Positions 2,859 through 29,645 of a stretch of 50,796 bases of DNA are shown here, piece by piece; within the stretch, counting starts at the first letter, position 1; every line of letters starts with the position of its first letter. A program made the position numbers and the translations under genes. The notes under the pieces were generated by a model. The model was not told the origin of the DNA. It worked only from the letters and a program-made list of their open reading frames with translations, and ran no database searches. The stretch lies in contig JAUWZV010000002.1 in the NCBI GenBank assembly GCA_030615105.1, forward strand, positions 1 through 50,796. Direction: 5' to 3'. This DNA comes from Desulfobacteraceae bacterium. Its GTDB lineage: Bacteria > Desulfobacterota > DSM-4660 > Desulfatiglandales > B25-G16.

Positions 2859-3055
2859 TTTTATTGGTTCATCTGGTTCAATTGGATTTGCGGATTTAGG
2901 TGGTTTGATGAGCGGGATTAATTTTATCGATTCTAGTCGCTATGATTATTGAAAAAAAGAACTTGCTATTACCTAGTCCAGGCCTTCACTTCAAACAAGA
3001 GTGTGGTGAGGAGAAAGAATGTGACCAATAAAACCAATTGAACAAGGTATTGCTC

Positions 3056-5259: not shown

Positions 5260-5332
5260 CCTAAAACTCCTAAGGAGAAAGTAATAATATCCTTCATCCT
5301 TTGACCTTAAAAGGGGAAAAAGACTGGTGAAC

Positions 5333-6203: not shown

Positions 6204-7394
6204 ATGACGAGGCCTGGTAGCTGTCTTAATCCACTAACTCGCTTTCAGGAAAAGGGAGGATACGTGGAGGGCATTTATCCTGTCAAAGAATTCCACGCCG
6301 TTCTTAGGCGTGAGCGCGCACGCTCAGACCGCACTGGTGGTAGGTTATCGCTCATTATTTTCGACATGGGCGATAGGCATACGGACCAAACTGCTGCGCG
6401 TCGCCTGGCGCATATCCTCACCCAGCGAATGCGATCAATAGATGAAATGGGATGGTTCGACACATGGCGCCTCGGTGTCGTCCTGCCCGATACACCTGCT
6501 GAGGGTGCTTCGAAGCTTGCCAACGATATATGTCAGAAATTTACTATTAAAAATAAAATGGTGTTCCCTATCTTCAAGATTTATACATACCCCTCAGATT
6601 GGTTGCCCGGATTTAAGGAGAATCCCCCAAATCATCCATCCGTAAAGACCGACCTCGACGGAAGTGTTCCGTCTGCGACACAGTCAGACAAAGCCAAAAT
6701 CTTGAACTGCAACAGCCTCATAGAGGGACTTGAGCCTCTCTTGGTCAAGCAGATGCCTGCTTGGAAGCGCGGGATAGATATTCTCGGGTCAGTATTTGGG
6801 CTCGTTCTTCTATTTCCGGTGTTTTTGCTTATCTCCATCGTAATCAAAATCGTATCACCCGGCCCAGTTTTCTTCAAACAGAAAAGAGTGGGATACTTGG
6901 GTAAGCCTTTCAATTGCTTGAAGTTTCGTACTATGCATCCAAATGCAAATTCATTTGCATATGAACAGCATCTAAGTGAATGTATCAACAGTGATAATCC
7001 CTTTAACAAATTGGATAATGATGATTCTCGAATTATGCCCTTTGGAAAACTATTACGCAAAACTAGCCTAGATGAAGTGCCCCAACTCCTCAATGTACTT
7101 CGAGGTGAAATGAGCCTAGTTGGGCCTCGTCCAGATGTCCCTTATTCGGTGCAGCGTTACACCCAGTGGCACCACAACCGATTAGATACTTTTCCCGGAC
7201 TGACTGGTCTCTGGCAAGTAAGTGGAAAGAACAGAACGACCTTCAAGGAAATGATTCGCTTGGACATCACTTATACTCAGCAAAGATCATTTTGGTTAGA
7301 TTTTAAGATATTACTGAAAACCGTACCCGTCATTATCACTCAAGCTTTCGATTCTTTGTTAAAACGAAAAGATGAAGAACATGCTTACATTTAA
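6204..7394 (+). CDS. Priming phosphoglycosyl (bacterial sugar) transferase with N-terminal degenerate GGDEF-like domain
   Basis: The C-terminal half has the bacterial sugar transferase signature (SPGPVFFKQKRVG...KFRTM...DEVPQLLNVLRGEMSLVGPRP) after one hydrophobic helix. The N-terminal ~120 aa align to the GGDEF fold (LSLIIFDM...RSIDEMGWFDTWRLGVVLPDT). A strong RBS (aaggag) is present. Confidence 0.85.
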   Translation: MTRPGSCLNPLTRFQEKGGYVEGIYPVKEFHAVLRRERARSDRTGGRLSLIIFDMGDRHTDQTAARRLAHILTQRMRSIDEMGWFDTWRLGVVLPDTPAEGASKLANDICQKFTIKNKMVFPIFKIYTYPSDWLPGFKENPPNHPSVKTDLDGSVPSATQSDKAKILNCNSLIEGLEPLLVKQMPAWKRGIDILGSVFGLVLLFPVFLLISIVIKIVSPGPVFFKQKRVGYLGKPFNCLKFRTMHPNANSFAYEQHLSECINSDNPFNKLDNDDSRIMPFGKLLRKTSLDEVPQLLNVLRGEMSLVGPRPDVPYSVQRYTQWHHNRLDTFPGLTGLWQVSGKNRTTFKEMIRLDITYTQQRSFWLDFKILLKTVPVIITQAFDSLLKRKDEEHAYI

Positions 7395-7532: not shown

Positions 7533-8549
7533 ATGATGCAAAGAGTTCTTAACATCGCGGTAGTAGGCTTTGGCTATTGGGGGCCGAATATAGTAAGAAA
7601 TTTTCATGCCATTGAAGGCACCCGGGTCATTTCGGTTTGTGACAGAGAATCAACTGCCCTAAAACGCGTCAAAAAGTCTTATCCCAGTATACAAACATCT
7701 ACCGATTTTAATAAAATAATATATTCTCCGGACATCGACGCAGTCGCTATTGTTACACCAGTCTCTGCGCATTATGAATTGGCCAAAAAGGCCCTTGAAA
7801 ATGGAAAGCACATTTTTGTGGAAAAGCCCTTTACATCTACAGTTGCCCAAGCAGAAAAATTGATAGAACTGGCAGATAAAAAGAATCTTAAAATTATGGT
7901 TGATCATACGTTCCTTTTTACCGGCGCTGTTAGAAAAATAAAGGAATTAGTTGATAATGATATATTGGGAGATTTGTATTATTACGATTCCATGAGAGTA
8001 AATCTGGGGCTTTTTCAGCATGACATTAATGTAATCTGGGACCTCGTGCCACATGATCTATCCATAATGGATTTCCTCATCGATGAGAAAGTTGACGCCA
8101 TTATAGCTAGTGGCAAACCACATTTTGGCAATGAACTCGAGGACATCGCCTTCATTACGGTCTATTTTACTAACAACATAATTGCCCACTTTAATGTCAA
8201 CTGGCTATCCCCAGTTAAAGTTAGAACAACACTTATAGGTGGTGAGAAAAGGATGCTAGTCTGGAATGATTTGGATGCAGATGAAAAAATTAAGGTATAT
8301 GACAAAGGTGTGAAAGTTGAGAATAATGAAGGTATATATAATTTACTTGTAAGTTATCGATCCGGTGATATGTGGGCGCCTAAAGTAGAGCAAACCGAAG
8401 CTCTAAGAGCTGAAGCAGAATATTTTGTTGATTGTATCCTAAATGATAAGACTCCATTTAATGATGGGCATGCTGGTTTGAGAGTAATAAAAATGTTAGA
8501 GGCATCTAATAAATCATTAAAGAATGAAGGAAAAATGGTTAAATTATAA
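7533..8549 (+). CDS. Gfo/Idh/MocA-family NAD-dependent sugar oxidoreductase (WbpB/WlbA-like UDP-sugar 3-dehydrogenase)
   Basis: N-terminal Rossmann motif IAVVGFGYWGPN and the EKP motif (VEKPFTS). It is adjacent to an LbH acetyltransferase and a DegT aminotransferase. Confidence 0.8.
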   Translation: MMQRVLNIAVVGFGYWGPNIVRNFHAIEGTRVISVCDRESTALKRVKKSYPSIQTSTDFNKIIYSPDIDAVAIVTPVSAHYELAKKALENGKHIFVEKPFTSTVAQAEKLIELADKKNLKIMVDHTFLFTGAVRKIKELVDNDILGDLYYYDSMRVNLGLFQHDINVIWDLVPHDLSIMDFLIDEKVDAIIASGKPHFGNELEDIAFITVYFTNNIIAHFNVNWLSPVKVRTTLIGGEKRMLVWNDLDADEKIKVYDKGVKVENNEGIYNLLVSYRSGDMWAPKVEQTEALRAEAEYFVDCILNDKTPFNDGHAGLRVIKMLEASNKSLKNEGKMVKL

Positions 8550-8639: not shown

Positions 8640-9170
8640 ATGAATTATGTATGCGTATCCGATGATGTCCAATTGGGTAAAAATGTCAAGCTCTCAAAAT
8701 TTATTAACCTTTACGGATGTAGTATTGGAGAAAACACCAAGATCGGAGCTTTTGTTGAGATTCAGAAGAATGCCAAGATTGGAAAAAATTGCAAAATTTC
8801 CAGCCATACCTTCATCTGTGAGGGAGTAACTATTGAAGACAATGTATTTATCGGTCACGATGTTACTTTTATCAATGATACATACCCACGTGCCGCAAAC
8901 CCTGAAGGTACTTTGCAAACAGAAAAAGATTGGAAAGTAGAACCAACAGTGGTTAAGAATGGAGCATCGATTGGTTCAGGTGCAACCATTCTAGCTAACA
9001 TAATCATAGGTGAAAAAGCCATCATCGGTGCAGGCAGTGTAGTGACCAAAGATTTACCAGTAGGGGCAATTGTTGCCGGTAATCCTGCAAAGATAATTAG
9101 AAAAATCAGGGAGGAAGAACATGAAAGTCCCGTTTCTGGACCTCAAAGCACAGTACGAATCCATACATGA
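8640..9170 (+). CDS. Left-handed beta-helix (hexapeptide) N-acetyltransferase, WbpD/WlbB-like
   Basis: Repeated hexapeptide pattern (IGENTKIGAFVEIQKNAKIGKNCKISSHTFI...GASIGSGATILANIIIGEKAIIGAGSVV). Its 3' end overlaps the next gene by 50 nt. Confidence 0.8.
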   Translation: MNYVCVSDDVQLGKNVKLSKFINLYGCSIGENTKIGAFVEIQKNAKIGKNCKISSHTFICEGVTIEDNVFIGHDVTFINDTYPRAANPEGTLQTEKDWKVEPTVVKNGASIGSGATILANIIIGEKAIIGAGSVVTKDLPVGAIVAGNPAKIIRKIREEEHESPVSGPQSTVRIHT

Positions 9171-10230
9171 TGGAATTACGGATGCGATACAGCAGGTTTT
9201 AGATAGTAGTGCCTTTGCCGGTGGACCGTTTGTTGACCGGTTTGAAAAGGAGTTTGCCTCATTCTGTCATTGTCAATACGGCATCGGTGTAGGTAGTGGG
9301 ACCGAAGCCCTCTGGCTGGCCCTTTTAGCCCACGGAATCGGCTGTGGAGATGAAGTCATTACTGTGCCTAGCACCTTCATTGCAACAATAGAAGCTATCA
9401 GTTTCTGTGGGGCCAAGCCAGTCTTTGTGGATATAGATGAGCAAACATATAATATGAACCCCGATTTACTTGAAAATACCATCACACCCCAAACCAAGGC
9501 CATCATACCCGTTCATCTATTCGGTCAGATGGCTGACATGGATCTCATCATGGAAATTGCCAAGGCGCGCGGATTGGTTGTTATTGAAGATGCGTGTCAA
9601 GCGCATGGGGCGCAATATAAAGGTAGGCGGGCGGGGTCAATCGGCGACGCAGGATGTTTCAGTTTTTATCCTGGAAAGAACCTAGGAGCTTATGGAGAAG
9701 CAGGTGCCGTGGTCACTAATAACCTTAATTTAGATAGAAACACTAGGATGTTGCGGGACCATGGACAGGCGAAGAAGTATTATCATGCGATGATCGGCTG
9801 GAATGCTCGCATGGACGGTTTGCAGGGTGCCGTCCTAGGTGTGAAACTCAAGCACCTTAATTCATGGAATGAAGCACGCAGGGAGAATGCAAAACTCTAT
9901 AATGAACTGCTGGCCGATTTAGACGGTACAGTCGTTCCCAGAGAAGCTGATTATGCAAAGCACGTTTATCACATTTACGCCATTCGCGTTCAAAATCGTG
10001 ATGGTCTAATTAAGGCTTTATTGGAAAAAGACATCCACTGTGGTATTCACTACCCGTTACCTTTGTATCTTCAAGAGGCTTATCATTTTATGGGCCTGGG
10101 AAAGGGAAGTTTTCCAGTAGCTGAAAAGTGCGCCGAAGAATTGGTCTCACTGCCAATGTTTCCGGAACTCAGCAAAGAACAAATAGAATACGTTGTGACC
10201 AAAATTAAACATTTTTTAGGCAATCAGTAG
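9121..10230 (+). CDS. DegT/DnrJ/EryC1/StrS-family PLP aminotransferase (WbpE/WlbC-like)
   Basis: MKVPFLDLKAQYESI start, IEDACQAHGA, and the lysine motif CFSFYPGKNLGAYGEAG. Confidence 0.9.
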   Translation: MKVPFLDLKAQYESIHDGITDAIQQVLDSSAFAGGPFVDRFEKEFASFCHCQYGIGVGSGTEALWLALLAHGIGCGDEVITVPSTFIATIEAISFCGAKPVFVDIDEQTYNMNPDLLENTITPQTKAIIPVHLFGQMADMDLIMEIAKARGLVVIEDACQAHGAQYKGRRAGSIGDAGCFSFYPGKNLGAYGEAGAVVTNNLNLDRNTRMLRDHGQAKKYYHAMIGWNARMDGLQGAVLGVKLKHLNSWNEARRENAKLYNELLADLDGTVVPREADYAKHVYHIYAIRVQNRDGLIKALLEKDIHCGIHYPLPLYLQEAYHFMGLGKGSFPVAEKCAEELVSLPMFPELSKEQIEYVVTKIKHFLGNQ

Positions 10231-10233
10231 CGC

Positions 10234-10977
10234 ATGCATTCTCCATCATTTAGTCCTCCGCCTTTGGACTTAGCCTTGAGGCCTGACGAAATCCATGTCT
10301 GGTGTGCTTCCTTGGATCAACAGGTATCACGATTTCAGATGCTATCACAAACACTCTCTCTGGACGAACACCTCAGAGCTGAACGGTTTCATTTTGAAAA
10401 AGACATAGAACATTTTATCGTTAGCCGTGGAATACTAAGAATGATTTTGGGATGTTACTTAAATATTGAGCCAAATCAGTTGCAATTCTGTTATGGAAAG
10501 AATGGAAAACCTGCGCTCGTTGATACATTTGGCAGCGGAATCGTTCATTTCAATCTATCTTGCTCAGACGGGTTAGGCCTTTATGCTTTCACCCAAGACC
10601 ATGAAATAGGTGTGGACATCGAACGCATCCGCGACATTCCCGAGATGGATCAGATAGCTAAGCAATTTTTTTCTATAAATGAAAATGATGTCTTTGTTTC
10701 ACTCCCTGAAAACAGAAAGAAGGAAACTTTTTTTAAGTTCTGGACCTGCAAGGAGGCCTTTATAAAGGCAACAGGAGACGGTTTGTCTCGGCCCTTGGAC
10801 AAGTTTGACGTATCCCTGGTCCAAGGTGAACCAGCTAAGCTACTAAGAATAGAAGGAGATTCAAAGGAAGTACCTTATTGGTCCATTCAGGAGTTGAAAC
10901 CGGCCTTCGGATTCGCGGCTGCTTTAGCTATAGAGGAGCAAGGCTGGTGCTTTCATTGTTGGCAATGGTTGGGATAG
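10234..10977 (+). CDS. Sfp-type 4'-phosphopantetheinyl transferase
   Basis: GKNGKPAL, GVDIERIR and FWTCKEAFIKATGDGLS motifs. It starts 3 nt after the aminotransferase stop. Confidence 0.85.
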   Translation: MHSPSFSPPPLDLALRPDEIHVWCASLDQQVSRFQMLSQTLSLDEHLRAERFHFEKDIEHFIVSRGILRMILGCYLNIEPNQLQFCYGKNGKPALVDTFGSGIVHFNLSCSDGLGLYAFTQDHEIGVDIERIRDIPEMDQIAKQFFSINENDVFVSLPENRKKETFFKFWTCKEAFIKATGDGLSRPLDKFDVSLVQGEPAKLLRIEGDSKEVPYWSIQELKPAFGFAAALAIEEQGWCFHCWQWLG

Positions 10978-11225
10978 ATAGTTATTATCGAATAAACTTA
11001 GGGCAGTAAAATATCAAACTTGGATTTTTCTGATACCCCATATTTTTTGTGCTGCGCGGAGGGTCGATATGAAAATACACCTCTCAGAATCGACTATTTT
11101 TCAGGAAGATCGACTGCCTCTGCTTCTTACCAAGGCTTTGATTTCCTCGTTCCGAATTTCACGGTTTGAAATCTGTTTCCCAACTTTTTGCTCCTTTATC
11201 TTGGTGCCGGGTTGATAGCATTTTA

Positions 11226-12437
11226 ATGATTAGAAGAAACCTTTTAAAATTACTTGCCATATTAGGACTCGGTTCTGTGGCGATCTTTTCTATAGAATCA
11301 TCGTTCATGAGACGGATCATTTATAAAATCGAAGACCTATTTAAGCCAATGGCTAAACTGCCGCCCGATAGCGAGAGGGAAGAAATTAATCTCTTAAGTG
11401 AAGGCTATACTGCTTCAGTTGAAATGACATTGAATTCGAGGTGCACAAGCGATTACGATGAAAATCCTAAAAAGTTCCATTGGGGCATGTTTGATAGAAC
11501 AAAGAAGCTTTCTGATGCACAAATAGAAAAAATAGTTCATCAAGCCAAAATACCTCGTTTTACTGGTGGGAAGGTGGAAATTCGACCTAAGCGTAATGTG
11601 CTGAATTTTGTAATCGACAATCATGCTTCGGGACTCCTAAGAGACTGGATGATGGTCGAAAGTGGCATGCAGCAGCAAGCGATAGGGTTAATTTGCGCAG
11701 CTAGGGGCGTTGGTATGGTCTTCAGGAGTCTCGGCCATGATGGGACCATTATCTCAGATACGGACTATGCAACCATAAAGATTAAATTGGATGCTATGAA
11801 GCCGACCTATGAGGGGTCGTTTTGGAGCAGTTCTCCTCCCATGGTCACAAAGCCCTGGTTGAGAGGGAATTTGCCAGAGCCTGTTAGAGATGGGAATAAG
11901 CCACTGATATCTGTTTTAGAAAACCTGAAGATCGAAAATAGGGGAGGCAAGAGATCAACGGATGAGTCAGTGAGCCAACTTCTTTGGGCTGCCAGGGGAA
12001 GAACTCCTCATTTTTATAAATCAAGGCCATGGGGTATGACGATACCTACATGTCGAGGTGAACAGAATATTTCAAACGTCTACCTGATCTCGGATTATAA
12101 ATTGTTTAGATATATAAATTGGCATAGAAATAGGCCAACGCATTCATTGAAGGTGCAGGGTGAAATAGAAATCGATTCCCAGAACGAACTGACAAAATTA
12201 TTTCCATTAGGTAACTGTTTTATTGTTATGGGGAAGAATGACAATTTTGCGAGAGCCCTTTGGGAAGTTGGGTATCAGCTACTGAACCTAATGCTGCAAG
12301 CACAAGCTTTGGATTTAGCTTTTAAAGCAATCCTGTTGGATGAAAATCAAAAAAAAACATTTCGAACTATAGGCATTATGGATCCTGTAGCTGCTTTGTT
12401 ATTGAAGCGCAAAAGTGGGCATCTTGAAATCCTCTAG
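11226..12437 (+). CDS. Tat-signal protein with SagB/ThcOx-like nitroreductase-fold C-terminal half
   Basis: The ATG at 11226 gives MIRRNLLKLLAILGLGSVAIFS, a twin-arginine-type signal. Later, VSQLLWAARGRTPHFYKSRPWGMTIPTCRGEQNISNVYLISDYKLFRY resembles the LLWAA.G...R..PS.G....Y pattern of SagB-type dehydrogenases. The track start at 11166 is a TTG. Confidence 0.55.
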   Translation: MIRRNLLKLLAILGLGSVAIFSIESSFMRRIIYKIEDLFKPMAKLPPDSEREEINLLSEGYTASVEMTLNSRCTSDYDENPKKFHWGMFDRTKKLSDAQIEKIVHQAKIPRFTGGKVEIRPKRNVLNFVIDNHASGLLRDWMMVESGMQQQAIGLICAARGVGMVFRSLGHDGTIISDTDYATIKIKLDAMKPTYEGSFWSSSPPMVTKPWLRGNLPEPVRDGNKPLISVLENLKIENRGGKRSTDESVSQLLWAARGRTPHFYKSRPWGMTIPTCRGEQNISNVYLISDYKLFRYINWHRNRPTHSLKVQGEIEIDSQNELTKLFPLGNCFIVMGKNDNFARALWEVGYQLLNLMLQAQALDLAFKAILLDENQKKTFRTIGIMDPVAALLLKRKSGHLEIL

Positions 12438-12466
12438 AGAAATATTAATCGTTGTTTTATAGCAAT

Positions 12467-14431
12467 ATGCCAGAAGTTTCTATGGACAAAATGATTATTC
12501 ACAGGGTGTTCGAAAATATAGTAGAACGATTCCCTAAAAATATAGCTGCCGAAGACAGTGCACGATGCGTGACGTATCAGGAACTGAATGCATACGCAAA
12601 CCGCATTGCAGATGCCATAGACGAGCTTAATGTTAACGCCAAAAGCATCGTAGGCATCTACTTCGAGGCGTCCATTGAGTATATCGCGGTTGTGCTCGGA
12701 GTGTTGAAGGCTGGGGCCATTTTTATGCCACTGAGCCCACGGTTCCCAGATAAACGCCTTATCTCTATCCTGAACAACACGGAACCCAACATTTTCATCA
12801 CGGGCGCACATCTGGAGAATGAATTGACTCTAAAGTTGAAAAATCCCGGCCTTTCTCTCTGCGCAAAGCACATGCTTGTGCTCAAGGATAGGAGCACATT
12901 TAGGGTGAAGGTTTTGCCCAGCGGCACTTCCGTGGCCAATGAGCACAATATGACTGATGAAAATCTGCCTCTTAGGACAGAACCGGACGATGGGTGCTAC
13001 ATTGTCACCACCTCCGCTTCCACAGGGGAACCGAAAGCAATCCTCGGTTGTCAGAAGGGACTAACCCACTTTATCCGCTGGGAAATCGACGAATTCGGTC
13101 TGAATAATGGTGTGCGGGTGAGCCTGCTTTCTCCTGTGACCTTCGACGTGAGCCTGCGGGATATCTTCATACCACTGATTGCAGGGGGAACGCTCTGTAT
13201 ACCAGATGAGGAAACGAGGCACCATCCGGGGAAACTGTTCAAGTGGATGCAGGACAGCGATATCACACTTACGCACATCGTCCCAACTCTTTTTCGCTTA
13301 GTTACGAGGGAAATTAAGGACTTGGGCGGCAGTGAGGACGCATTGCCAAATCTGGAATACGTCCTGATCGCTGGGGAGGCATTGTATGGGAGCGATGTTA
13401 TCAAGTGGCGGCAAGCCACTGGAAATCGCGTTGAACTCGTCAATATTTATGGGCCCTCTGAGACGACGCTTGCGAAGTTATTTTTCCGAATAAGAGATGA
13501 AGAGTTTGTTCCGCACGAGATTGTGCCTATTGGCAAGCCAATCCCGAATACTGAGATATTGCTTTTTAGAAATGGCCAACTCTGCGCTGCAGGTGAAACC
13601 GGGGAGATTTACATCAAGACCCCTTTCATGAGCAAAGGCTATTACAAGGCCCCGAAATTAAATAGAATGTCCTTTGTGCAAAATCCGCTTGTGACGGACC
13701 GGAAAGATATTATCTATAAGACTGGTGACCAGGGGAAATTGATGCCTGGCGGGAACCTGCGGTTCGAAGGCAGGCTCGATGGGCAGATCAAGCTTTACGG
13801 CAATCGCGTTGAGATCGGTGAGATCGAAGTCCTTCTCAGGCAACACCCCCAAGTGCGGGAAGCGGCTGTTGCCGCGAGAGAGGATGCCTTTGGAAACAAG
13901 CGGCTTGTCGGGTATGTAGTGCCTGAACAGGGGGAGAAACTTACAGTGGACTCTCTTCGTAGATTCATAGGGGATAAATTACCCGACTACATGGTACCTG
14001 CCGTGTATGTAACCTTGAAAGCGCTACCCTTAACACACAATGAAAAGATTGATAGAAGAGCGCTTCCTGAACCTGATCAAGCGCGACCTGAAATGGAGCA
14101 GCCTTATGTCTCTCCTTCCACTGTTTTGGAGAGAGCTTTATCCGGTATTTGGTGCTATGTTTTAGGCCTTGAACGGGTTGGCGTTCACGATAACTTCTTC
14201 GATCTCGGTGGGACCTCGATTTTAGCCGCAAAGCTGACTATGTTGCTGGAGAAGGAGCTTGGGATCGAACTGCCTATCGTCAAACTATATCAATATGCAA
14301 ATATAGGCTTTTTGGCGGAGTACTTGAGTCAAGGGCAGAGTTATCAGCCATCCTACGAAAAAGTCCAGGATAGGGCGGAGCGGCGGAGGGCTGCTTTTTC
14401 ACGTCGAAAACGGTCAACAATGAGAAGGTGA
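12467..14431 (+). CDS. NRPS loading protein: adenylation domain + peptidyl carrier protein (A-PCP), no condensation domain
   Basis: A-domain cores: TSASTGEPK (A3), FDVSLRDIF (A4, with the Asp typical of alpha-amino acid substrates), NIYGPSETT (A5), YKTGDQGK...GRLDGQIKLYGNRVEIGEIE (A7/A8) and PLTHNEKIDRRAL (A10). The PCP motif is FFDLGGTSILAAKL. The start is ambiguous (TTG 12452; ATG 12467, 12482 or 12491). Confidence 0.85.
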   Translation: MPEVSMDKMIIHRVFENIVERFPKNIAAEDSARCVTYQELNAYANRIADAIDELNVNAKSIVGIYFEASIEYIAVVLGVLKAGAIFMPLSPRFPDKRLISILNNTEPNIFITGAHLENELTLKLKNPGLSLCAKHMLVLKDRSTFRVKVLPSGTSVANEHNMTDENLPLRTEPDDGCYIVTTSASTGEPKAILGCQKGLTHFIRWEIDEFGLNNGVRVSLLSPVTFDVSLRDIFIPLIAGGTLCIPDEETRHHPGKLFKWMQDSDITLTHIVPTLFRLVTREIKDLGGSEDALPNLEYVLIAGEALYGSDVIKWRQATGNRVELVNIYGPSETTLAKLFFRIRDEEFVPHEIVPIGKPIPNTEILLFRNGQLCAAGETGEIYIKTPFMSKGYYKAPKLNRMSFVQNPLVTDRKDIIYKTGDQGKLMPGGNLRFEGRLDGQIKLYGNRVEIGEIEVLLRQHPQVREAAVAAREDAFGNKRLVGYVVPEQGEKLTVDSLRRFIGDKLPDYMVPAVYVTLKALPLTHNEKIDRRALPEPDQARPEMEQPYVSPSTVLERALSGIWCYVLGLERVGVHDNFFDLGGTSILAAKLTMLLEKELGIELPIVKLYQYANIGFLAEYLSQGQSYQPSYEKVQDRAERRRAAFSRRKRSTMRR

Positions 14432-14434
14432 CAT

Positions 14435-17400
14435 ATGATTAATTCTCAGAGTAGTGAAGAGCTAGGGGGTGTTGTAATCATCGGTATGGCTGGCCGCTTC
14501 CCCGGCGCAGCCAATGTCGACGATTTGTGGAAGAATTTATGTAAGGGTGTAGAATCGATTACGTTTTTTAATGATGACGAGTTGGACCCAAGCATTGACA
14601 CCATCCTTAGGAACAATGTCAACTACGTCAAGGCCAGGGGAATTCTCAAGGATGTTGACAAGTTCGATGCGGCATTCTTCGGTATAAGTCCCCGAGAGGC
14701 CGAAATTATGGACCCACAGCAGCGCATTTTTCTGGAAGTTGCGTTTCAGGCTCTTGAGAACGCAGGTTATAATCCGGATTCCTTTGATGGCTTGATTGGA
14801 GTATATGGCGGTACAGGTGTCAATACATATTTTGCCAGAAACGTCTCCGCACATCGAAACCTGATCGAGACATTCGGTGAACATCAGACGAACATAGCAA
14901 ATGCACCGGATTATTTGGCCCCCCGCGTTTCATATAAGCTGAATCTTAGAGGCCCGAGCGTGAGTATGTACACAGGATGCTCTCTGTCGTTGGTGGCCGT
15001 CTGCCATGGCTTCGACAGCTTGATGAGCTACCAATGTGATATGGCATTAGCTGGTGGAGTTTTTATTGAGTGTCCCCAGAATAGCGGATATTTATACCAA
15101 GAAGGTGAAATATTTTCTGCTGACGGACATTGCCGGCCTTTTGATGCACGGGCTCAAGGTACCGTGTTTAGTAATGGTGCTGGCATTGTTGTGCTCAAAC
15201 GTCTTGAGGATGCTCTAGAAGACGGGGACTGCATCTACGGGGTGATTCGAGGAACCGGACTTAATAACGATGGTTTCAAGAAGATGAGTTTTACGGCGCC
15301 CAGCGTCGATGGCCAGGCTGAAGTAATAGCAATTGCCCATGCAAATGCAGACGTAAACCCCGAAACGATTTCCTATGTTGAGACTCACGGTACAGGGACG
15401 CCAGTGGGAGATCCTATTGAAATTGCTGCTTTGACACAAGCGTTTCGCGCAAAAAGCTCAGCGAAGAATTTCTGCGCGATTGGCTCCATCAAGAGTAACA
15501 TTGGGCACCTGGATGCGGCTGCTGGAATTGTAGGGCTCATCAAAACCACTCTGATGCTTCATAACAAGGTACTCCCCCCAAGCTTGCACTTTGAAGAACA
15601 CAATCCAAAAATCGATTTTACAAACAGTCCGTTCTACATGAATACCAAGCTGTCGGAATGGGAAACCGATGGGGCACCTCGACGAGCCGGGGTTAGTTCG
15701 TTTGGGGTCGGCGGAACCAACGCACATCTAGTGCTCGAAGAAGCTCCTGTTATCGCAGCATCTGATCCTTCCAGGCCCTGGGTATTATTACCTCTCTCGG
15801 CTAAGACGAGTAGAGCCTTAGGCTTAGCGGCGATAAATCTTGTTAATCACTTAAAGCAGCACCCACATTTGAACCTTTCAGATGTTGCTTACACCCTTCA
15901 AATTGGACGGAAGGCCTTTAATCATCGAATGATTGCTGTCTGTAAGGATCTCCAAGATGCTGTGAACAATTTGGAAACACAAGATTCACAACAGGTAATT
16001 ACATCCACTCTAGAGACCACCACTCGAGACATTGTGTTCATTTTTTCTGGTCAGGGTTCACAGTACGTAAACATGGGGTTGGAACTTTATAGAACTGAAA
16101 CAATATTTGGAGAACAAGTAGATCTCTGTTCAGAAATTCTTAGGCCTCATCTTTTACTTGATTTACGGGATATCCTATATCCAGACAAGAAAAATGTCGA
16201 AGAAGCAGCACAAAAGCTGAAAGAAACATTCATTACCCAACCCGCATTGTTTGTAATTGAATATGCCCTAGCAAAACTATGGATGGCATGGGGAGTGCAT
16301 CCGTTTGCTTTAGTAGGTCATAGCATCGGTGAGTACGTAGCCGCTTGCCTGGCAGGGGTATTTTCCCTTGAAGATGCCCTATCAGTTGTATCCACACGCG
16401 GCCGACTCATACAGGAACTCCCCGCTGGTTCTATGCTGGCGGTTTTTCTTTCGGAAGAGAGTATTCAGCCATTCTTAAATGAAAAGATTTCTCTGGCGGT
16501 TATAAACGGTCCTTCTCTTTGTGTCGTTTCCGGTGAAAAAGAGGCTATTGAAGGTTTGGAAAAAGAGCTTTCTGTTAGGAATGTGGATTGTCGGCGTCTG
16601 CATACGTCTCATGCATTTCATTCAAAAATGATGGAACCGGTTCTAGAGGAATTTACTGAAAAGGTAAAAGAACTTAGACTGAATCCTCCACAGATTCCCT
16701 TTGTTTCAAATGTCACTGGTACGTGGGCTACTGCGGATGAAGCAACGAACCCGAGTTATTGGGCCACCCATCTGCGCCAAACAGTTCGCTTCTCAGACTG
16801 TCTAGAAGAGTTGTTGAAAGAACAAAACAGGGTTCTTTTGGAGGTTGGACCGGGACAGACAGCTAGCACGTTGACAGACCAGCATCCAAATAGGAAAAGG
16901 AGACAAATTATTCTTTCTTCGACTCGCCATCCGAATCAACAAAAATCGGATGTTGGTTTTATCTTGAACACCCTTGGCCGACTCTGGCTTGCTGGCATTC
17001 AGGTGGATTGGTCTGGATTTTATGCAGATGAGAATCGTCATCGCCTCCCATTGCCTAATTACCCATTTGAGCGCAAGCGTTATTGGATTGACACAGGAAA
17101 ACAAATATTCACTAGTGTTTCCACGGCGTCAAAATCACACGAAGAACTTGAGAAGAGCCCTGTCGGGGATCAAACGCAGTCAGTGCAGAAAATTGAAAAT
17201 AAATGTGACTACAGTTTTACTGATGATATCGAAAAAACTGTTGCCAATATCTGGGAAGAATTACTTGGTATTGATGAGGTGGGAATTCAAGATGATTTCT
17301 TTGAGTTGGGTGGAAGTTCTATAATAGCCGTTCGTTTGTTTGCTCAGATCGAGAAAATATTTGGTAAGAGACTTCCCTTATCCACCCTTTACGAAGCGCC

Positions 17401-18301
17401 AACTGTCAAGCAACTGTCTGCTCTCCTTCGCAGAAAGGAATGGGAAGCACCTTGGGACTCTTTGGTAGATATTCAGTCTGGTGGCTCTAAACCGGCATTT
17501 TTCTGTATACATGGGGCAGGTGGCAACATACTAATTTATCGTGATCTCGCGCGTCATCTTGGCCCTGATCAGCCAGTTTATGGCTTGCAATCACAGGGAC
17601 TGGATGGAAAACAGACTCTACATACCTCCATCGAGGACATGGCTGCTCATTACGTCAAAGAAATAAAAGTCGTACAGCCTGATGGCCCTTATCTTCTCGG
17701 GGGATATTGCATGGGCGGTACAGTGGCTTTGGAGATAGCCCAGCAACTCTATGCGAGAGGTGAGAAGGTAGCACTGTTGGCCTTATTAGAAACCTACAAT
17801 TTTTCAAATAATCCACCTCAGTCATTGCTTGAAAGTTTTTACTATAATATGCAAAAGATCGAATTTCATTGGCGTAACTTCTTGCTTCTGGAATCAAAAG
17901 AGAAATTCACATTCATTAACGAAAAGCTGAAGGCTGTCAAAGGAAGAAGGAAAGTGTGGTTGGGCATGATAACATCAAAACTAGGCAACATTTTTCACAA
18001 TGCTAATGGACAGTCTTCAATTCTATCAGAGATTTGGCAGATCAACGACGATGCCTCACTCACTTATGTACCGAAGCCCTACCCAGGGCCAATTACCCAA
18101 TTTGTGCCAGTTAAAGAATACGCCCGCCATGAAGGCCCGGGACTCGGGTGGCATGACCTGGCTCGTGGGGGTCTGGAAATACACCAATTACCTGTCTATC
18201 CTGCAGGAATGCTTGTAGAGCCATTTGTTCATATCTTGGCAGGGAAATTAAAGGGTTGTATCCAAAAGGCATTGGAAAATGACTCTACCAATAAAATATA
18301 A
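14435..18301 (+). CDS. Type I PKS module KS-AT-carrier protein-thioesterase (no KR/DH/ER)
   Basis: The KS has Cys (TGCSLS, codon at 14978-14980) and both His motifs (ETHGTGT, KSNIGH). The AT has GHSIGE (Ser codon 16322-16324) and HAFHS (the malonyl-type motif). The carrier motif is FFELGGSSIIAVRLF. The TE region is FFCIHGAGG...LGGYCMGG. It starts 3 nt after the A-PCP stop, with an RBS (gagaaggtga). Confidence 0.9.
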   Translation: MINSQSSEELGGVVIIGMAGRFPGAANVDDLWKNLCKGVESITFFNDDELDPSIDTILRNNVNYVKARGILKDVDKFDAAFFGISPREAEIMDPQQRIFLEVAFQALENAGYNPDSFDGLIGVYGGTGVNTYFARNVSAHRNLIETFGEHQTNIANAPDYLAPRVSYKLNLRGPSVSMYTGCSLSLVAVCHGFDSLMSYQCDMALAGGVFIECPQNSGYLYQEGEIFSADGHCRPFDARAQGTVFSNGAGIVVLKRLEDALEDGDCIYGVIRGTGLNNDGFKKMSFTAPSVDGQAEVIAIAHANADVNPETISYVETHGTGTPVGDPIEIAALTQAFRAKSSAKNFCAIGSIKSNIGHLDAAAGIVGLIKTTLMLHNKVLPPSLHFEEHNPKIDFTNSPFYMNTKLSEWETDGAPRRAGVSSFGVGGTNAHLVLEEAPVIAASDPSRPWVLLPLSAKTSRALGLAAINLVNHLKQHPHLNLSDVAYTLQIGRKAFNHRMIAVCKDLQDAVNNLETQDSQQVITSTLETTTRDIVFIFSGQGSQYVNMGLELYRTETIFGEQVDLCSEILRPHLLLDLRDILYPDKKNVEEAAQKLKETFITQPALFVIEYALAKLWMAWGVHPFALVGHSIGEYVAACLAGVFSLEDALSVVSTRGRLIQELPAGSMLAVFLSEESIQPFLNEKISLAVINGPSLCVVSGEKEAIEGLEKELSVRNVDCRRLHTSHAFHSKMMEPVLEEFTEKVKELRLNPPQIPFVSNVTGTWATADEATNPSYWATHLRQTVRFSDCLEELLKEQNRVLLEVGPGQTASTLTDQHPNRKRRQIILSSTRHPNQQKSDVGFILNTLGRLWLAGIQVDWSGFYADENRHRLPLPNYPFERKRYWIDTGKQIFTSVSTASKSHEELEKSPVGDQTQSVQKIENKCDYSFTDDIEKTVANIWEELLGIDEVGIQDDFFELGGSSIIAVRLFAQIEKIFGKRLPLSTLYEAPTVKQLSALLRRKEWEAPWDSLVDIQSGGSKPAFFCIHGAGGNILIYRDLARHLGPDQPVYGLQSQGLDGKQTLHTSIEDMAAHYVKEIKVVQPDGPYLLGGYCMGGTVALEIAQQLYARGEKVALLALLETYNFSNNPPQSLLESFYYNMQKIEFHWRNFLLLESKEKFTFINEKLKAVKGRRKVWLGMITSKLGNIFHNANGQSSILSEIWQINDDASLTYVPKPYPGPITQFVPVKEYARHEGPGLGWHDLARGGLEIHQLPVYPAGMLVEPFVHILAGKLKGCIQKALENDSTNKI

Positions 18302-18340
18302 GTTGCGGTTTATCATCCCACTATCTAAAGGAAATCAACG

Positions 18341-19270
18341 ATGAATTACTGTAGGGTAAGAAACATTTTTTACTATAATTTGAAACCATTCATTCGAAGA
18401 GAAGTCCAGATTTGGTTACGAGCCAAAGTTGCTAATCTAAAAGTTAGATTAAACTCAAGAGATTGGCCAATTGATGAGAATGCTGGCAAATTGCCTGACA
18501 ATTGGATAGGATGGCCAGACCAGAAAGAGTTTGCCTTAGTCTTGACGCATGACGTAGATACAGCGCGGGGTCAAAAGAGATGTTACCAATTGATGGAAAT
18601 AGAAGAGCGATTAGGATTTAGGTCTTCCTTTAATTTTGTTCCTGAGCGATATGAAGTCTCTTCTTCACTTCGTGCTCACCTTTTAAAATACGGATTTGAA
18701 GTAGGCGTCCATGGCTTGAATCACGATGGGAAACTTTTTTCATCAAAAATGGTTTTTGATAAAAGAGCTGCAAAAATCAATCAGATCCTGAAAAAGTGGT
18801 CGGCGGTTGGATTTCGCTCCCCTGCCATGCATCATAATTTAGATTGGATCGGTGATTTGAATATAGATTATGATGCTTCAACATTTGATACAGATCCCTT
18901 TGAACCACAGCCCGATGGCGTTGGAACGATATTTCCATTTTGGGTTAAGGCGCCATCCGCTATGAGAGGATTTGTGGAGCTCCCATGCACATTGCCTCAG
19001 GATTTCGTATTATTTATTCTCCTCAAACAGAAAGATATAAACATTTGGAAACAAAAATTGGATTGGATTGCTGAAAGAGGTGGGATGGCCCTTTTAATCA
19101 CTCATCCTGACTATATGAACTTTGGCAAAGAAAAGCTTGGACTGGAAGAATTTCCAGTTGAATATTATGAGCAGTTTCTAATTTATACAAAAACCAAATA
19201 TGAACACAGGTGCTGGCATGTTTTGCCGAAGGACATTAGCCGTTTCTGGTCAACGAATATTGTTAAATAG
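18341..19270 (+). CDS. Polysaccharide deacetylase-like (CE4/NodB-type, ArnD-like) protein
   Basis: LTHDVDTARG resembles the DVDT.RG first motif of ArnD-type deformylases/deacetylases, and conserved His residues follow (GVHGLNHDG, ITHPDY). The family call is motif-level only. Confidence 0.5.
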   Translation: MNYCRVRNIFYYNLKPFIRREVQIWLRAKVANLKVRLNSRDWPIDENAGKLPDNWIGWPDQKEFALVLTHDVDTARGQKRCYQLMEIEERLGFRSSFNFVPERYEVSSSLRAHLLKYGFEVGVHGLNHDGKLFSSKMVFDKRAAKINQILKKWSAVGFRSPAMHHNLDWIGDLNIDYDASTFDTDPFEPQPDGVGTIFPFWVKAPSAMRGFVELPCTLPQDFVLFILLKQKDINIWKQKLDWIAERGGMALLITHPDYMNFGKEKLGLEEFPVEYYEQFLIYTKTKYEHRCWHVLPKDISRFWSTNIVK

Positions 19271-19506: not shown

Positions 19507-20718
19507 ATGATTCAGTATTATTCCCCAAATATCAACTTTAGAGCACTTTTGAATTTTTTTTATGGAAGTAATTCTCGGGAAAAAATAGTCAGGTACTTTA
19601 AGAATTATACGGGGAAAAAATACATACTATTAACTCACTCAGGACGAAGTTCATTATACCTGGCCTATAAGGCTTTAGATAAAGAGGGTGAGGTTATTAC
19701 TAGCCCATTAACGTGTTTTGTTGCAATCTTACCTTTGCTTTGTGCACAATATAAACCCGTGTTTGTTGACATTGACAGGGACTCACTTAATATTGATGCG
19801 TCTAAGATTGAAGACAAAATTAGTAGTAATACCGTAGCAATACAAGCAATTCATCTAGGCGGCAACTCCGTGGAAATAACTAAAATACGGTCATTGGCGC
19901 TTAAATATAATTTAATACTGATTGAAGATTGTGCACAGGCTTTTGGTGCCACGTATCTAAACAAAAATGTCGGATCTTTTGGCGATGTCGCCTGCTTTTC
20001 GCTTACCAAAAATCTATTTGGTATTGTAGGTGGCATTCTGGCAACTGACAGCATGGAACTATATCAAAAAGCAATGAAAATCCAGGAAAGTTTTGAAAAA
20101 GCATCACAAAAATTTACTTATTATCGGTTATTTAGAAGCTGGCTTGAAACAAACCGAGGTAAAGTTGCCGGAAGATTTCTTTACAACCTTTTAATGAAAA
20201 TGAAAAATTGGTCTGTTAAATACGTAAAAAAAGACCAAAAAAGTATTTTCTATCCCGTACTTAATTATTTGAGAAGGCCTGCTGAAAACAGCTTTAATAT
20301 AACTGCTTTTCAGCTAAATCGCATTGACTATCTTCATAAAAAGAGAATAAATATAGCTAAAGTGTTAAAGGAGCGCCTAAATAGAATACAAAATATTAGT
20401 TTTCAACAGACAAGTGTCGAAAATCAACATTCTTTTTGTAAGTTTTATATTTACTCAGACTATTTTAATAAACAGGATATTGAATACTTAAATAAACAAG
20501 GTATTGAAGCTAAACACCTTGAACAAAACTATCATTTGTTCTATCAGGAAAGATTTGATAGGCAAGATTTACTTAAAGAAAACGCTTCTCTCCAATGCTG
20601 CATTAATTATTATGATACACACGATAGAGTTATCAGTCTTCCGTTACACGAAGAAATGACAAACAAAGACATTGAACATATTAGCAAGATATTAGAACGA
20701 ATACTAAGTCGTGTGTGA
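19507..20718 (+). CDS. DegT-family-like PLP aminotransferase (divergent), in a visibly AT-rich segment
   Basis: GEVITSPLTCF, IEDCAQAFGA and the lysine motif CFSLTKNLFGIVGGIL match the DegT/DnrJ layout. The C-terminal half is divergent. Confidence 0.6.
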   Translation: MIQYYSPNINFRALLNFFYGSNSREKIVRYFKNYTGKKYILLTHSGRSSLYLAYKALDKEGEVITSPLTCFVAILPLLCAQYKPVFVDIDRDSLNIDASKIEDKISSNTVAIQAIHLGGNSVEITKIRSLALKYNLILIEDCAQAFGATYLNKNVGSFGDVACFSLTKNLFGIVGGILATDSMELYQKAMKIQESFEKASQKFTYYRLFRSWLETNRGKVAGRFLYNLLMKMKNWSVKYVKKDQKSIFYPVLNYLRRPAENSFNITAFQLNRIDYLHKKRINIAKVLKERLNRIQNISFQQTSVENQHSFCKFYIYSDYFNKQDIEYLNKQGIEAKHLEQNYHLFYQERFDRQDLLKENASLQCCINYYDTHDRVISLPLHEEMTNKDIEHISKILERILSRV

Positions 20719-20968
20719 GAATATATGACCTGATATTAGAAGTAATTAATCATATGCAGTTGTAATTGCTCAATAGGTCCTGGGGCCACATTTGGATTCT
20801 CGCGGCGGCGCGAATCCAGTGAAAAGCGCGATATAGAAACTTTACCCAGACTCCTTGAGAGCCTATAGTAATATTATTTTCGATTATAAAGGAATTTCTA
20901 ATGTGCAAAATCCAAAAAAATACGAAGGACAATCTAATATCGCACTCGCGTTACGAAAGATTAGCCAA

Positions 20969-22183
20969 ATGAAGAAGGATATATCAATCAATATGATTCG
21001 GATTGCAATGGTGGTTTTTGCAGAGTATCCATCAGATGTTCGCGTCAGGCGTGAAGCAGAAGGTTTAGTCGAAGCGGGAATGGCAGTGGATGTGATCTGT
21101 ACCAGAGGTGATGCGGAGTCGCGAAAAGAAAAGGTTAATGGCGTTAATGCTTATCGAATTAAGCTGAGACGGAAACGGGGCGGCAAATTACGCTATATAT
21201 GGCAGTGGAGCTATTTTATTATTGCGGCATTTACGAAATTATCTTGGCTATACTTGATCAAAAAATATCGCGTCGTTCATTTGCATAATATGCCGGACTT
21301 CCTGGTGGTTGCCGCTCTCCTGCCCAAATTGACCGGGTCCAAAATAATCCTTGACTTACATGACCCAATGCCCGAAGTCTATATGACAAAATACTCGATG
21401 GCTGAATCTCATCCGGTCATACGGCTCCTAAAAATCGTCGAAAAGTGGTGTATTGGATTTGCTGATCTGGTGATTACTCCCAATATCTCGTTTCGTAATC
21501 TATTCATTTCTCGAAGTTGCCCCAGTTGGAAAATTCACATTGTGATGAATTCCCCTCAAGAGGAAATCTTCCAAAAAAATAACTTATATCAAAACAAACA
21601 TAAGACACTGAACAGAGGTGACTTTGTTATTATGTATCATGGCCATATTTTTAAAATGTATGGTCTTGATACGGCTATCGAGGCAGTTGCCCGGGTGCGA
21701 GAGCAGATTCCTAACCTAATGTTGCATGTGTACAATGATGGCGATTTCTTGGAGCATATTCAAAAACAGGTTGATGATTTAGGTCTCAAGGATATTGTGA
21801 AATTTCATGGGAAGGTGCCTGTAGAAAGCATCGCTGCAGCCATTGCATCTATTGATGTAGGAATCGTTCCGAACAATATGACACCTTTTACGAACTTGAA
21901 TTTCCCGACTAGAATTTTGGAGTTTTTGATTAGGAATAAACCTGTTATTGTATCTAAGACTCAAGGTATTTGCGATTATTTTGATGAGAACTCTATGTTT
22001 TTTTTTAAAGCTGGTGACGATAGAGATTTAGCAAGACAAATAATAAAAGTATATTCCGATCGCACGATGAGGAAAGATATCATCGATAGAGGAGTAAATA
22101 TTTGGAAGCAACACAGGTGGAACGTACAGAAAAAGTATTTAGTTAAAATAGTAAACCAGGTTTTAGAAAAAAATATCAATTAA
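20969..22183 (+). CDS. Glycosyltransferase, GT4-like (GT-B fold)
   Basis: IRIAMVVFAEYPSDVRVRREAEGL is a typical N-terminus. HLHNMPDFLVVAA...LDLHDPMPE and a C-terminal GT-B half follow. The first ATG is at 20969 (alternative 20993). The track start at 20855 is not an ATG. Confidence 0.7.
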   Translation: MKKDISINMIRIAMVVFAEYPSDVRVRREAEGLVEAGMAVDVICTRGDAESRKEKVNGVNAYRIKLRRKRGGKLRYIWQWSYFIIAAFTKLSWLYLIKKYRVVHLHNMPDFLVVAALLPKLTGSKIILDLHDPMPEVYMTKYSMAESHPVIRLLKIVEKWCIGFADLVITPNISFRNLFISRSCPSWKIHIVMNSPQEEIFQKNNLYQNKHKTLNRGDFVIMYHGHIFKMYGLDTAIEAVARVREQIPNLMLHVYNDGDFLEHIQKQVDDLGLKDIVKFHGKVPVESIAAAIASIDVGIVPNNMTPFTNLNFPTRILEFLIRNKPVIVSKTQGICDYFDENSMFFFKAGDDRDLARQIIKVYSDRTMRKDIIDRGVNIWKQHRWNVQKKYLVKIVNQVLEKNIN

Positions 22184-22665: not shown

Positions 22666-22838
22666 AATGCTGGAAGAAACATAGCACAGAGTGAGTTGTA
22701 AAGCATGTAAAAACAACAGATTGAAGCACATTATAAACAATATTTTTACAATAAACAGCACAACTTCGAAATCATTCTGATGACGTTTTGGTTGGGTTGT
22801 GCAAACGTCTCAAAGTGCCTCAAATTGAAGGGAGACTT

Positions 22839-28374: not shown

Positions 28375-28450
28375 CCTTATGATAGGCGGGATTAACCTGT
28401 GTGGAACACCTTAGTGGTCCAGCAAGGATGTTTGTAGGATATTGAGGATT

Positions 28451-29644: not shown

Positions 29645-29645
29645 T

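Follow-up and report, generated by a model that had tools for sequence, protein, structure and literature searches.

The window analysed here, a stretch of 50,796 nt from a Desulfobacteraceae bacterium (GCA_030615105.1, contig JAUWZV010000002.1, positions 1-50,796, + strand), carries an exopolysaccharide (EPS) locus of the Wzx/Wzy-dependent type. An initiating transferase, Wzx, Wzy, Wzz/BY-kinase and Wza are all identified by Pfam, and they lie in an uninterrupted run of + strand genes that extends in the list of open reading frames (ORFs) from 1260 to ~30.9 kb. Between the gene for a DegT-family sugar aminotransferase (DegT1) and that for a CE4-fold metal hydrolase (ORF309) sits a hybrid block of nonribosomal peptide synthetase (NRPS) and polyketide synthase (PKS) type: a 4'-phosphopantetheinyl transferase (PPTase), a nitroreductase-fold protein with a predicted twin-arginine translocation (Tat) signal (ORF423), a loading protein made of an adenylation (A) and a peptidyl carrier protein (PCP) domain, and a PKS with ketosynthase (KS), acyltransferase (AT), carrier protein (CP) and thioesterase (TE)-like domains. 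Considering its domains and its company, there is in our estimation roughly an even chance (about 0.5) that this block is an accessory acylation module, grafted onto an otherwise common, XrtA-like Wzx/Wzy locus, that would decorate an amino sugar of the repeat unit. An earlier note on this DNA, made from the bare sequence, had described the block as operon-like in its spacing. The gaps that it gave are exact (3 nt from DegT1 to the PPTase, 10230/10234; 3 nt from A-PCP to the PKS, 14431/14435; 39 nt from the PKS to ORF309, 18301/18341), but such tight spacing does not extend to the 248 nt between PPTase and ORF423 or to the 236 nt between ORF309 and the second DegT gene (DegT2).

The loading protein is matched in Pfam by AMP-binding, AMP-binding_C and PP-binding, and its score against the 'amino acid adenylation' model TIGR01733 (335.6 bits) lies above the cut-off of 317.4; gene calling places its likely start at the ATG at 12482, giving a product of 649 aa. 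The A domain has the motifs FDVS (A4, containing the Asp235 equivalent), YGPSE, YKTGD and NEKIDR (A10), and the PCP has GGTS. In the PKS, Pfam recognises the N- and C-terminal ketoacyl-synt domains, the KS-AT linker, Acyl_transf_1, PP-binding and Thioesterase, and the motifs are again legible: TGCS, HGTGT and NIGH in the KS, GHSIG and HAFH in the AT, GGSS in the CP. The A and PCP domains and the KS, AT and acyl carrier protein (ACP) serine of a hybrid type I NRPS-PKS are thus all present, while neither Pfam nor NCBIfam finds a condensation (C), ketoreductase (KR), dehydratase (DH) or enoylreductase (ER) domain anywhere in the block. On all of these points the earlier note read the letters correctly: its domain calls (PPTase, A-PCP, KS-AT-CP-TE, nitroreductase fold, Tat signal and CE4 fold) are upheld by Pfam/NCBIfam, by AlphaFold2 (AF2) models with Foldseek, and by motifs, as are the missing condensation and reducing domains and the FD.S Asp and HAFH motifs. 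The minimal chemistry that it proposed, in which an alpha-amino acid is extended by a single malonyl unit and no reducing step follows, agrees with this set of domains.

The earlier note had also suggested that the specificity code of the A domain be extracted. Codes were read by alignment in GrsA numbering, from a GrsA fragment identical to 1AMU over chain residues 184-526, and the extraction script recovers the textbook codes for Gly (DILQLGMIWK), Ser (DVWHISLVDK), Thr (DFWNIGMVHK), Asp (DLTKIGHVGK) and GrsA itself (DAWTIAAICK). For the window it gives DVRHLAILAK, which is similar to the Ser code with an Arg in place of Trp239; we know of no described A-domain code that matches it, and DVRH-type strings had no match in the searchable open-access literature, which is weak evidence. 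Since the equivalents of both Asp235 and Lys517 are retained, the A domain is likely to activate an alpha-amino acid. Glycine, suggested by LgrA as the top match in the PDB, was rejected as the substrate: the score of that match sums two A domains, and the code is not DILQLGMIWK. The same code, in the form DVRH[LM]A[LI]LAK, recurs in seven relatives (our loci L001, L002, L085, L092, L099, L186 and L187), and the loci that have it are those whose loading module is a plain A-PCP, either free-standing or fused to the PKS. Elsewhere in the cassette family the loading modules would use Ser via C-A-PCP (nine loci), Thr via formyltransferase-A-PCP, Gly or a beta-Ala-like substrate. A gene for an S-adenosylmethionine (SAM) methyltransferase often stands beside the A-PCP/PKS genes of the DVRH-code loci, between PPTase and A-PCP in L001, L002 and L085/L086, and, in L186, downstream of them on the other strand. 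A larger CE4 protein (~445 aa) is also encoded in L001, L002 and L085, and an ATP-grasp protein in some loci. That methyltransferase is missing from the window, where ORF423 is in its place.

It is in the last domain of the PKS that the sequence departs most clearly from the textbook. The Pfam Thioesterase match covers PKS residues 1023-1122 and includes a nucleophile elbow, GGYCMGG, in which the nucleophile is Cys1092 (encoded at 17708-17710). In the triad columns of the homologue alignment this Cys is accompanied by Glu1119 at the Asp position and by Pro1256 at the canonical His position, the very column in which homologues with a canonical Ser/Asp/His triad place their His. The domain therefore lacks the Ser/Cys-Asp-His triad of a terminal thioesterase. 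Cys occupies the nucleophile position in 93% of 106 homologues, and the full Cys/Glu/Pro combination is kept in 75 of the 106, so the configuration is under selection. The sole His conserved in at least 90% of them is His1026, in the IHGAGG segment near the N-terminal end of the domain, and the alignment shows no further conserved His in the C-terminal half. Such domains are common: Cys, Asp or Glu, and Pro, without the canonical His, are found in 111 of the best 150 cluster representatives drawn from the whole protein universe (P0361-P0510), where they occur stand-alone, in proteins of ~880 aa (the size of an A-PCP-TE protein) and in proteins of ~1300 aa. Among the closest solved relatives, the TE of the Acinetobacter baumannii NRPS AB3403 (elbow GGWCFGG) is the only one that aligns over nearly the whole domain; a PDB search with the last 69 residues of the window domain, as a comparison of the His region with AB3403, gave only chance matches, to herpesvirus DNA-binding proteins. 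With the Cys present and the catalytic His absent, simple hydrolytic release, as the earlier note had proposed for this TE, is doubtful, and the domain looks more like a transacylase that holds a thioester than like a hydrolase. The His-less Cys 'TE' proteins seem to constitute a large family whose chemistry is apparently undescribed.

Two of the proteins have no Pfam match and were identified by their predicted structures. For ORF309, which even PF01522 does not match at E 1e-3, the AF2 model (predicted local distance difference test score, pLDDT, 87) retrieves 3rxz (E 3e-10), the ArnD structure 8t0j and PuuE in Foldseek. It has the barrel fold, metal site, Arg-x-Pro motif and catalytic His of a CE4 enzyme, and the catalytic set D71, H124, H128, R159/P161 and H255 is invariant or nearly so across its family. 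That family is very large: all 8000 candidates scored had E <= 1e-5, and the 120 homologues listed are 58-75% identical to it. No signal peptide is visible in the ORF309 sequence, and the enzyme is therefore predicted to act in the cytoplasm. The AF2 model of ORF423 (pLDDT 81) is a single-chain double nitroreductase fold, with 3eo7, the Acg-like 2ymv and 3hj9 as Foldseek matches, and a profile search against the PDB supports the same fold. Its true start is probably the ATG at 11226. Every family member with a fully called N-terminus (21 of 38 members) shows an RRxFL twin-arginine motif and, after it, a hydrophobic stretch, and ORF423 is thus predicted from its sequence to be exported by the Tat route to the periplasm. 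Homologues of ORF423 occur in 19 representative genomes; in the 17 informative loci they adjoin the PKS in 11 cases and lie within polysaccharide loci in all 17.

Full-length homologues of the PKS (~1280-1300 aa, 53-72% identity) are numerous, and we compared their neighbourhoods in loci sampled regardless of content together with loci from species-representative genomes. The linkage of the block to polysaccharide genes is conserved. A PPTase, a loading module and a KS-AT-CP-TE protein are embedded together in polysaccharide loci in L082, L083, L085, L186 and L187, in L002, L007, L028 and L077, and in L089, L093, L098-L101 and L104, where their neighbours include GT4 and GT2 glycosyltransferases, Wzy, Wzx, Bac_transf, GFO, Hexapep, DegT, UDP-sugar dehydrogenase, AsnB-like, ATP-grasp and CE4 proteins. 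The hosts belong to the Desulfobacterota, Nitrospirota, Acidobacteriota and others, with Desulfobacterales, Syntrophales, Terriglobia and Chloroflexota among the labels of their lineages. Altogether this linkage and this position are seen again in over 20 independent loci, which come from several phyla and differ in their loading modules. In a control comparison, in which all loci came from a single PKS query, at least two kinds of polysaccharide gene lay within 10 kb in 7 of 21 loci of the TE type, as against none of 58 that matched the KS-AT-CP part only and were mostly cyanobacterial NRPS-PKS genes (Fisher p = 4e-5, a value to be taken cautiously, as the loci are not independent samples). 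The idea of the earlier note that the block belongs to a polysaccharide pathway thereby passes the test that the note itself had set, namely that homologous blocks in relatives should not always lie outside polysaccharide loci: they are found inside such loci repeatedly, and at one and the same site beside the CE4 gene.

The nature of that slot emerges from the loci of ORF309 homologues (CE4-309), a scan for which gave 590 or more sites in genomes. When the 67 best loci with a length of 8 kb or above are compared, 56 have two or more types of polysaccharide gene and 42 have both GFO and DegT. The recurrent order is Wza-Wzz-AAA22-BY-kinase-polyprenyl-phosphate sugar phosphotransferase-GFO-Hexapep-DegT-X-CE4-309, and the gene X between DegT and CE4-309 is of the FemAB/Acetyltransf_6 family in all six loci tested. 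The window has this same backbone and no FemAB-like gene; the PPTase-ORF423-A-PCP-PKS block occupies the position of X. A FemAB-like gene lies near CE4-309 in 50 of 72 loci that have neither a PKS nor an A/ACP pair, as against 2 of 11 PKS loci. CE4-309 and DegT1 are core genes of this common GFO-Hexapep-DegT-(FemAB-like)-CE4 amino-sugar backbone, which is usually without a PKS; they are not accessories of the block that the earlier note saw them flank.

Eight further loci contain a third, dissociated arrangement, in which a stand-alone ACP and an A enzyme share the locus with CE4-309. In Geobacter sp. AOG1 (L145, 9989-16082) the order is CE4-309, ACP, an acyltransferase of the left-handed beta-helix (LbH) type, an arginase-fold protein, an acyl-CoA dehydrogenase and an AMP-ligase; by analogy, this is a putative LpxD-like re-acylation set in cultured Geobacterales. 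In Geomobilimonas luticola JCM 17780 (L132) the ACP immediately follows CE4-309 and the A enzyme lies further downstream. In the locus of the cultured Desulfonema magnum 4be13 (L091; CP061800, 4817639-4838820) the order is XrtD exosortase, DegT, ORF423 homologue, ACP (81 aa), DltA-like A enzyme, formyltransferase-like protein, ketoacyl-ACP synthase III (KAS III), Hexapep and CE4-309, and a tetratricopeptide repeat (TPR) protein is encoded there as well. We infer that the FemAB-like gene, the A/ACP/LbH set and the NRPS-PKS block are alternative ways to acylate one and the same amine.

The remaining features of the locus are given in Table 1. The best or near-best NCBIfam matches of the backbone proteins are models of the XrtA/PEP-CTERM system (TIGR03007, TIGR03015, TIGR03018 and TIGR03027), all with scores below their cut-offs. 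A phmmer search with the D. magnum XrtD found no exosortase homologue within the 50.8-kb window, though one might lie beyond it, and assignment to the exosortase-associated XrtA/PEP-CTERM EPS systems was rejected on both counts. The G+C content of the NRPS-PKS genes (0.42-0.49) is like that of the upstream EPS genes. By contrast, the segment 19200-23400, with DegT2, a GT4 gene, a GT4 remnant and a serine resolvase, is low in G+C (0.34-0.39) and resembles a recombination scar or a stretch of acquired DNA inside the EPS locus; a repeat search found no convincing recombination sites or clear inverted repeats around the resolvase. DegT2, which the earlier note had counted among the flanking genes that could expose sugar amines, has no conserved partner in the loci of relatives; it is not conserved with the block and lies in the low-G+C segment next to the resolvase. 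Terminator-like sites in the window (17, with 15.2 expected) and promoter-like ones (49, with 38.1 +/- 6.6 expected) are near the shuffled expectation. Wzx is followed, at 28442-30869, by a gene of the alkaline-phosphatase superfamily (Phosphodiest) and, overlapping it, an ORF of 446 aa that matches no family. Downstream of the locus, the - strand (33136-36303) encodes a protein of 1055 aa that includes a bacterial Ig (Big_9) domain and has no PEP-CTERM-like tail visible at its C-terminus. Further on (41936-45496, - strand), an AMP-binding CoA-ligase-like gene adjoins that of an aldehyde:ferredoxin oxidoreductase of the tungsten type, which is indicative of an anaerobe and possibly of a carboxylate-reduction pair.

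Table 1. Genes of the EPS locus and the evidence for each. Identification was by Pfam and NCBIfam searches of the window ORFs, with further gene calls and phmmer labels; positions are those of the window.
Feature	Position	Strand	Evidence
Wzz-type chain-length protein	1260-2858	+	Pfam Wzz and GNVR
AAA22 ATPase	3038-4417	+	Pfam
BY-kinase	4516-5259	+	Pfam AAA_31/ParA
Wza-type exporter	5327-6058	+	Pfam Poly_export and SLBB
Polyprenyl-phosphate sugar phosphotransferase	6204-7394	+	Pfam Bac_transf
GFO/IDH/MocA oxidoreductase, UDP-GlcNAc 3-dehydrogenase-like (WbpB-like)	7533-8549	+	PF01408; NF040723 188 bits, below cut-off
Hexapep (LbH) N-acetyltransferase, WbpD/NeuD-like	8640-9170	+	Pfam Hexapep; TIGR03570 77 bits, below cut-off
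DegT/DnrJ/EryC1 sugar aminotransferase 1 (DegT1), WbpE-like	9121-10230	+	PF01041 E 1.6e-122; synteny in relatives
Sfp/HetI-type 4'-phosphopantetheinyl transferase (PPTase)	10234-10977	+	ACPS and AASDHPPT_N; NF042922 HetI 254 bits, below cut-off; motifs GVDIE, WTCKEAFIK
ORF423, Tat-signal double nitroreductase-fold protein	11226-12437 (ORF opens 11166)	+	AF2 and Foldseek; PDB profile; RRxFL
A-PCP loading protein	12452-14431	+	A ~12509-14047, PCP ~14135-14326; Pfam, TIGR01733
KS-AT-CP-TE-like PKS	14435-18301	+	KS ~14471-15736, AT ~16034-16879, CP ~17237-17428, TE-like ~17492-18298; Pfam, motifs
ORF309, CE4-fold metal hydrolase (deacetylase/deformylase type)	18341-19270	+	AF2 and Foldseek; catalytic residues
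DegT2, second, divergent DegT-family enzyme	19507-20718	+	PF01041 E 3e-54, match in two stretches
GT4	20855-22183	+	Pfam
GT4 remnant, C-terminal, 74 aa	22441-22665	+	gene calls / phmmer labels
Serine resolvase	22788-23345	+	Pfam
GT4	23391-24671	+	Pfam
Uridine-kinase-family protein	24668-25327	+	Pfam
Wzy	25350-26786	+	Pfam Wzy_C
Wzx	26797-28374	+	Pfam Polysacc_synt

A GFO, DegT and Hexapep trio (WbpB, WbpE and WbpD) is the signature of UDP-2,3-diacetamido-2,3-dideoxy-hexose synthesis, and in the pathway that we envisage GFO, DegT1 and Hexapep would supply a UDP-2,3-diamino-2,3-dideoxy-hexose of the GlcNAc3NAc type. The cytoplasmic CE4 enzyme would then strip off one N-acyl group, from either the nucleotide sugar or the lipid-linked unit, and leave a free amine. 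Meanwhile the PPTase would prime both carrier domains, the A domain would load a small alpha-amino acid onto the PCP, and the KS and AT would add one malonyl unit to yield a 4-amino-3-oxoacyl thioester. The C-terminal alpha/beta-hydrolase domain would accept this acyl group on Cys1092 and hand it by aminolysis to the sugar amine instead of to water because the general-base His is absent; a thiol domain with no such base would be expected to be poor at activating water and good at passing a thioester to an amine. Wzx would flip the decorated unit and Wzy polymerise it, with the nitroreductase-fold protein, a putative flavoprotein exported by the Tat route, perhaps modifying the substituent or the sugar in the periplasm. 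A transamination of the beta-keto group by DegT2 was also considered, and dropped for want of conservation of DegT2 with the block. In its full detail the proposal is a tentative one, to which we give distinctly less than even odds: the Cys domain would be a transacylase that attaches the 4-amino-3-oxoacyl unit, or the tetramate cyclised from it, through an amide bond to a 2,3-diamino sugar that has been deacetylated, and the block would be one of three interchangeable amine-acylation cartridges with which many anaerobic bacteria of sediment and soil diversify their EPS.

Several observations weigh against an acylation module. The transfer of the acyl group to a sugar is a prediction from the genomic context, and the 4-amino-3-oxoacyl thioester could cyclise by itself to a tetramic acid with no need of any acceptor. 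Close homologues in L005, L078, L081 and the cyanobacterial L087 lack sugar genes, or have only a few of them, within 10 kb, and L087 looks like an ordinary NRPS-PKS metabolite cluster. FemAB-like and PKS genes occur together in L082, L187 and L104, so that replacement of the one by the other is not strict, and the loci retrieved via ORF423 or ORF309 are biased toward containing those genes. Within the window itself, ORF423 is predicted to be periplasmic as opposed to the cytoplasmic assembly line, and the 248-nt gap between PPTase and ORF423 places a promoter-like site inside the block. In the main rival reading, the block would make a free small molecule, either a tetramic acid (pyrrolidine-2,4-dione) by self-lactamisation or, after hydrolysis and decarboxylation, an alpha-aminoketone or pyrazine, and its place in the EPS locus would serve co-regulation only, as for a biofilm signal or a matrix-associated antibiotic. 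Aminoacyl loading, one malonyl unit and a terminal TE are indeed the logic of tetramates such as reutericyclin, closure of a five-membered lactam might need so little catalysis that a His-less Cys domain suffices, and the same type of TE is found in AB3403 and in many single-module proteins of NRPS size outside obvious sugar contexts; the ordinary look of the cyanobacterial L087 cluster fits this reading too. Yet co-regulation leaves the fixed position next to CE4 across phyla unexplained and does not account for a slot that is otherwise taken by enzymes predicted to acylate amines; Pfam finds no small-molecule exporter gene in the block, and the variants with a starter C domain or a formyltransferase block the very amine that simple lactamisation requires. 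We consider a free product unlikely, while granting it real weight.

The other explanations fare worse. That the PKS makes a lipid-like anchor or primer for starting or ending the polysaccharide, as has long been proposed for RkpA/WcbR, has in its favour that PKS genes are documented in capsule clusters (PMC3908369) and that starter-C variants (L083, L089, L093 and others) could put a fatty acyl group on Ser; with no C, KR, DH or ER domain and only one extension, though, no lipid chain is possible in the window, where a normal polyprenyl-phosphate sugar transferase is encoded and the architecture is unlike the reducing, mono-modular RkpA/WcbR type, and we hold this explanation to be quite improbable. 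Equally far-fetched, to our minds, is a surface acceptor other than the polysaccharide, such as a protein sorted by PEP-CTERM/exosortase, peptidoglycan or a lipid. Three relatives (L091, L098 and L099) do adjoin exosortase genes and the best family matches of the backbone are XrtA-system models, but the exosortase search of the window was negative, the one large neighbouring protein that was checked has no PEP-CTERM tail, and the tightest partners of the block are the sugar-modifying GFO, DegT, Hexapep and CE4. Finally, the block could be a mobile NRPS-PKS cassette that came into the EPS locus by an accident of horizontal transfer and is functionally unlinked to it. The patchy phylogenetic distribution of the block would fit such an accident, as would the resolvase, the GT4 remnant and the low-G+C segment 3.5 kb downstream; the recurrence of linkage and slot among independent loci, and a G+C content that fits the upstream EPS genes rather than that segment, largely refute it and make it the most improbable explanation of all. 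An acylation module, with the caveats given above, is the reading that we prefer.

If that reading is true, the block joins secondary-metabolite assembly lines to surface-polysaccharide biosynthesis, which are usually separate fields. EPS would gain a substituent of a new class, in the form of a reactive beta-keto-gamma-amino acyl or tetramate group that affects the charge, metal binding and cross-linking of the biofilm, and the His-less Cys 'TE' domains, a very large family, would receive a function. Loci of this kind, now listed by genome mining as orphan NRPS-PKS 'natural product' clusters, may then be glycan-tailoring modules, and alternative cartridges at one slot offer a testable model for the evolution of EPS diversity.

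Both the carrier-protein-dependent acylation of surface glycans and the presence of PKS genes in capsule loci are already known. In the LpxC/LpxD and NodB/NodA pairs, a metal-dependent deacetylase (in the case of NodB a CE4 enzyme) frees a sugar amine that is then re-acylated from an ACP, and NodF and NodE are a dedicated ACP and KS. The window would share this logic of deacetylation followed by re-acylation, but its block has no dedicated transferase of the LpxD or NodA type, its acyl group would be aminoacyl-derived with a beta-keto function, and the acceptor would be the repeat unit of an EPS. The D-alanylation of teichoic acid by the Dlt system (DltA/DltC) likewise employs an amino-acid adenylation enzyme and a carrier protein on a surface glycopolymer, and models of the DltA/DltC type give the best scores for the A enzyme and the ACP of D. 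magnum. In 1-30869, however, no + strand ORF of 100 aa or more has a Pfam match to MBOAT (DltB) or DltD, for which reason membership in the Dlt-type systems was rejected; the linkage predicted for the window also differs, being an amide on an amino sugar, made in the cytoplasm and involving a PKS extension. The synthesis of reutericyclin by RtcN/RtcK joins an aminoacyl thioester to one malonyl unit and off-loads the product by a terminal TE. Such tetramate synthases form stand-alone secondary-metabolite clusters with a canonical TE, whereas the window block lies in a polysaccharide operon and has the His-less Cys domain.

With respect to that domain, a GxCxG nucleophile elbow is common to ObiF, SulM, AB3403 and the window; the Cys-type NRPS TE of ObiF keeps its Cys-His-Asp triad (PMC6668435), as does that of SulM (PMC10510592), and ObiF has a His where the window has Pro. 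The RkpA/WcbR proteins are type I PKSs encoded in the capsule loci of rhizobia and Burkholderia (PMC3908369) and resemble the window PKS in lying inside a cluster for polysaccharide biosynthesis and export. They are nevertheless large, reducing and mono-modular, belong to ABC-transporter capsule loci and are thought to make lipids, as opposed to a non-reducing, amino-acid-primed PKS with one extension in a Wzx/Wzy locus; the lack of KR, DH and ER domains and the type of locus led us to reject membership here too. The earlier note knew of no precedent for its module layout. Its general kind does have precedents, in RfbK/RfbL, Dlt and RkpA/WcbR, but this particular layout, a hybrid NRPS-PKS with a His-less Cys domain set in a Wzx/Wzy EPS backbone, was not found described in the open-access literature (weak evidence), and neither were three alternative cartridges at one slot in the literature that was searched.

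A further comparison is with the O antigen of Vibrio cholerae O1, for which the carrier protein RfbK and the adenylate-forming ligase RfbL/WbeL supply the tetronate that N-acylates perosamine (PMC3441752, PMC12208996). There, as in the window, an adenylating enzyme and a carrier protein lie within a surface-polysaccharide locus. The window differs in having fused type I NRPS/PKS proteins, a KS extension, an A domain for an amino acid, a PPTase of its own, a Cys TE-like domain and not a separate acyltransferase, and a sugar predicted to be of the 2,3-diamino type and not perosamine. The dissociated relatives, with an ACP, a ligase and an LbH acyltransferase beside the CE4 gene, resemble the tetronate system of V. 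cholerae O1 closely.

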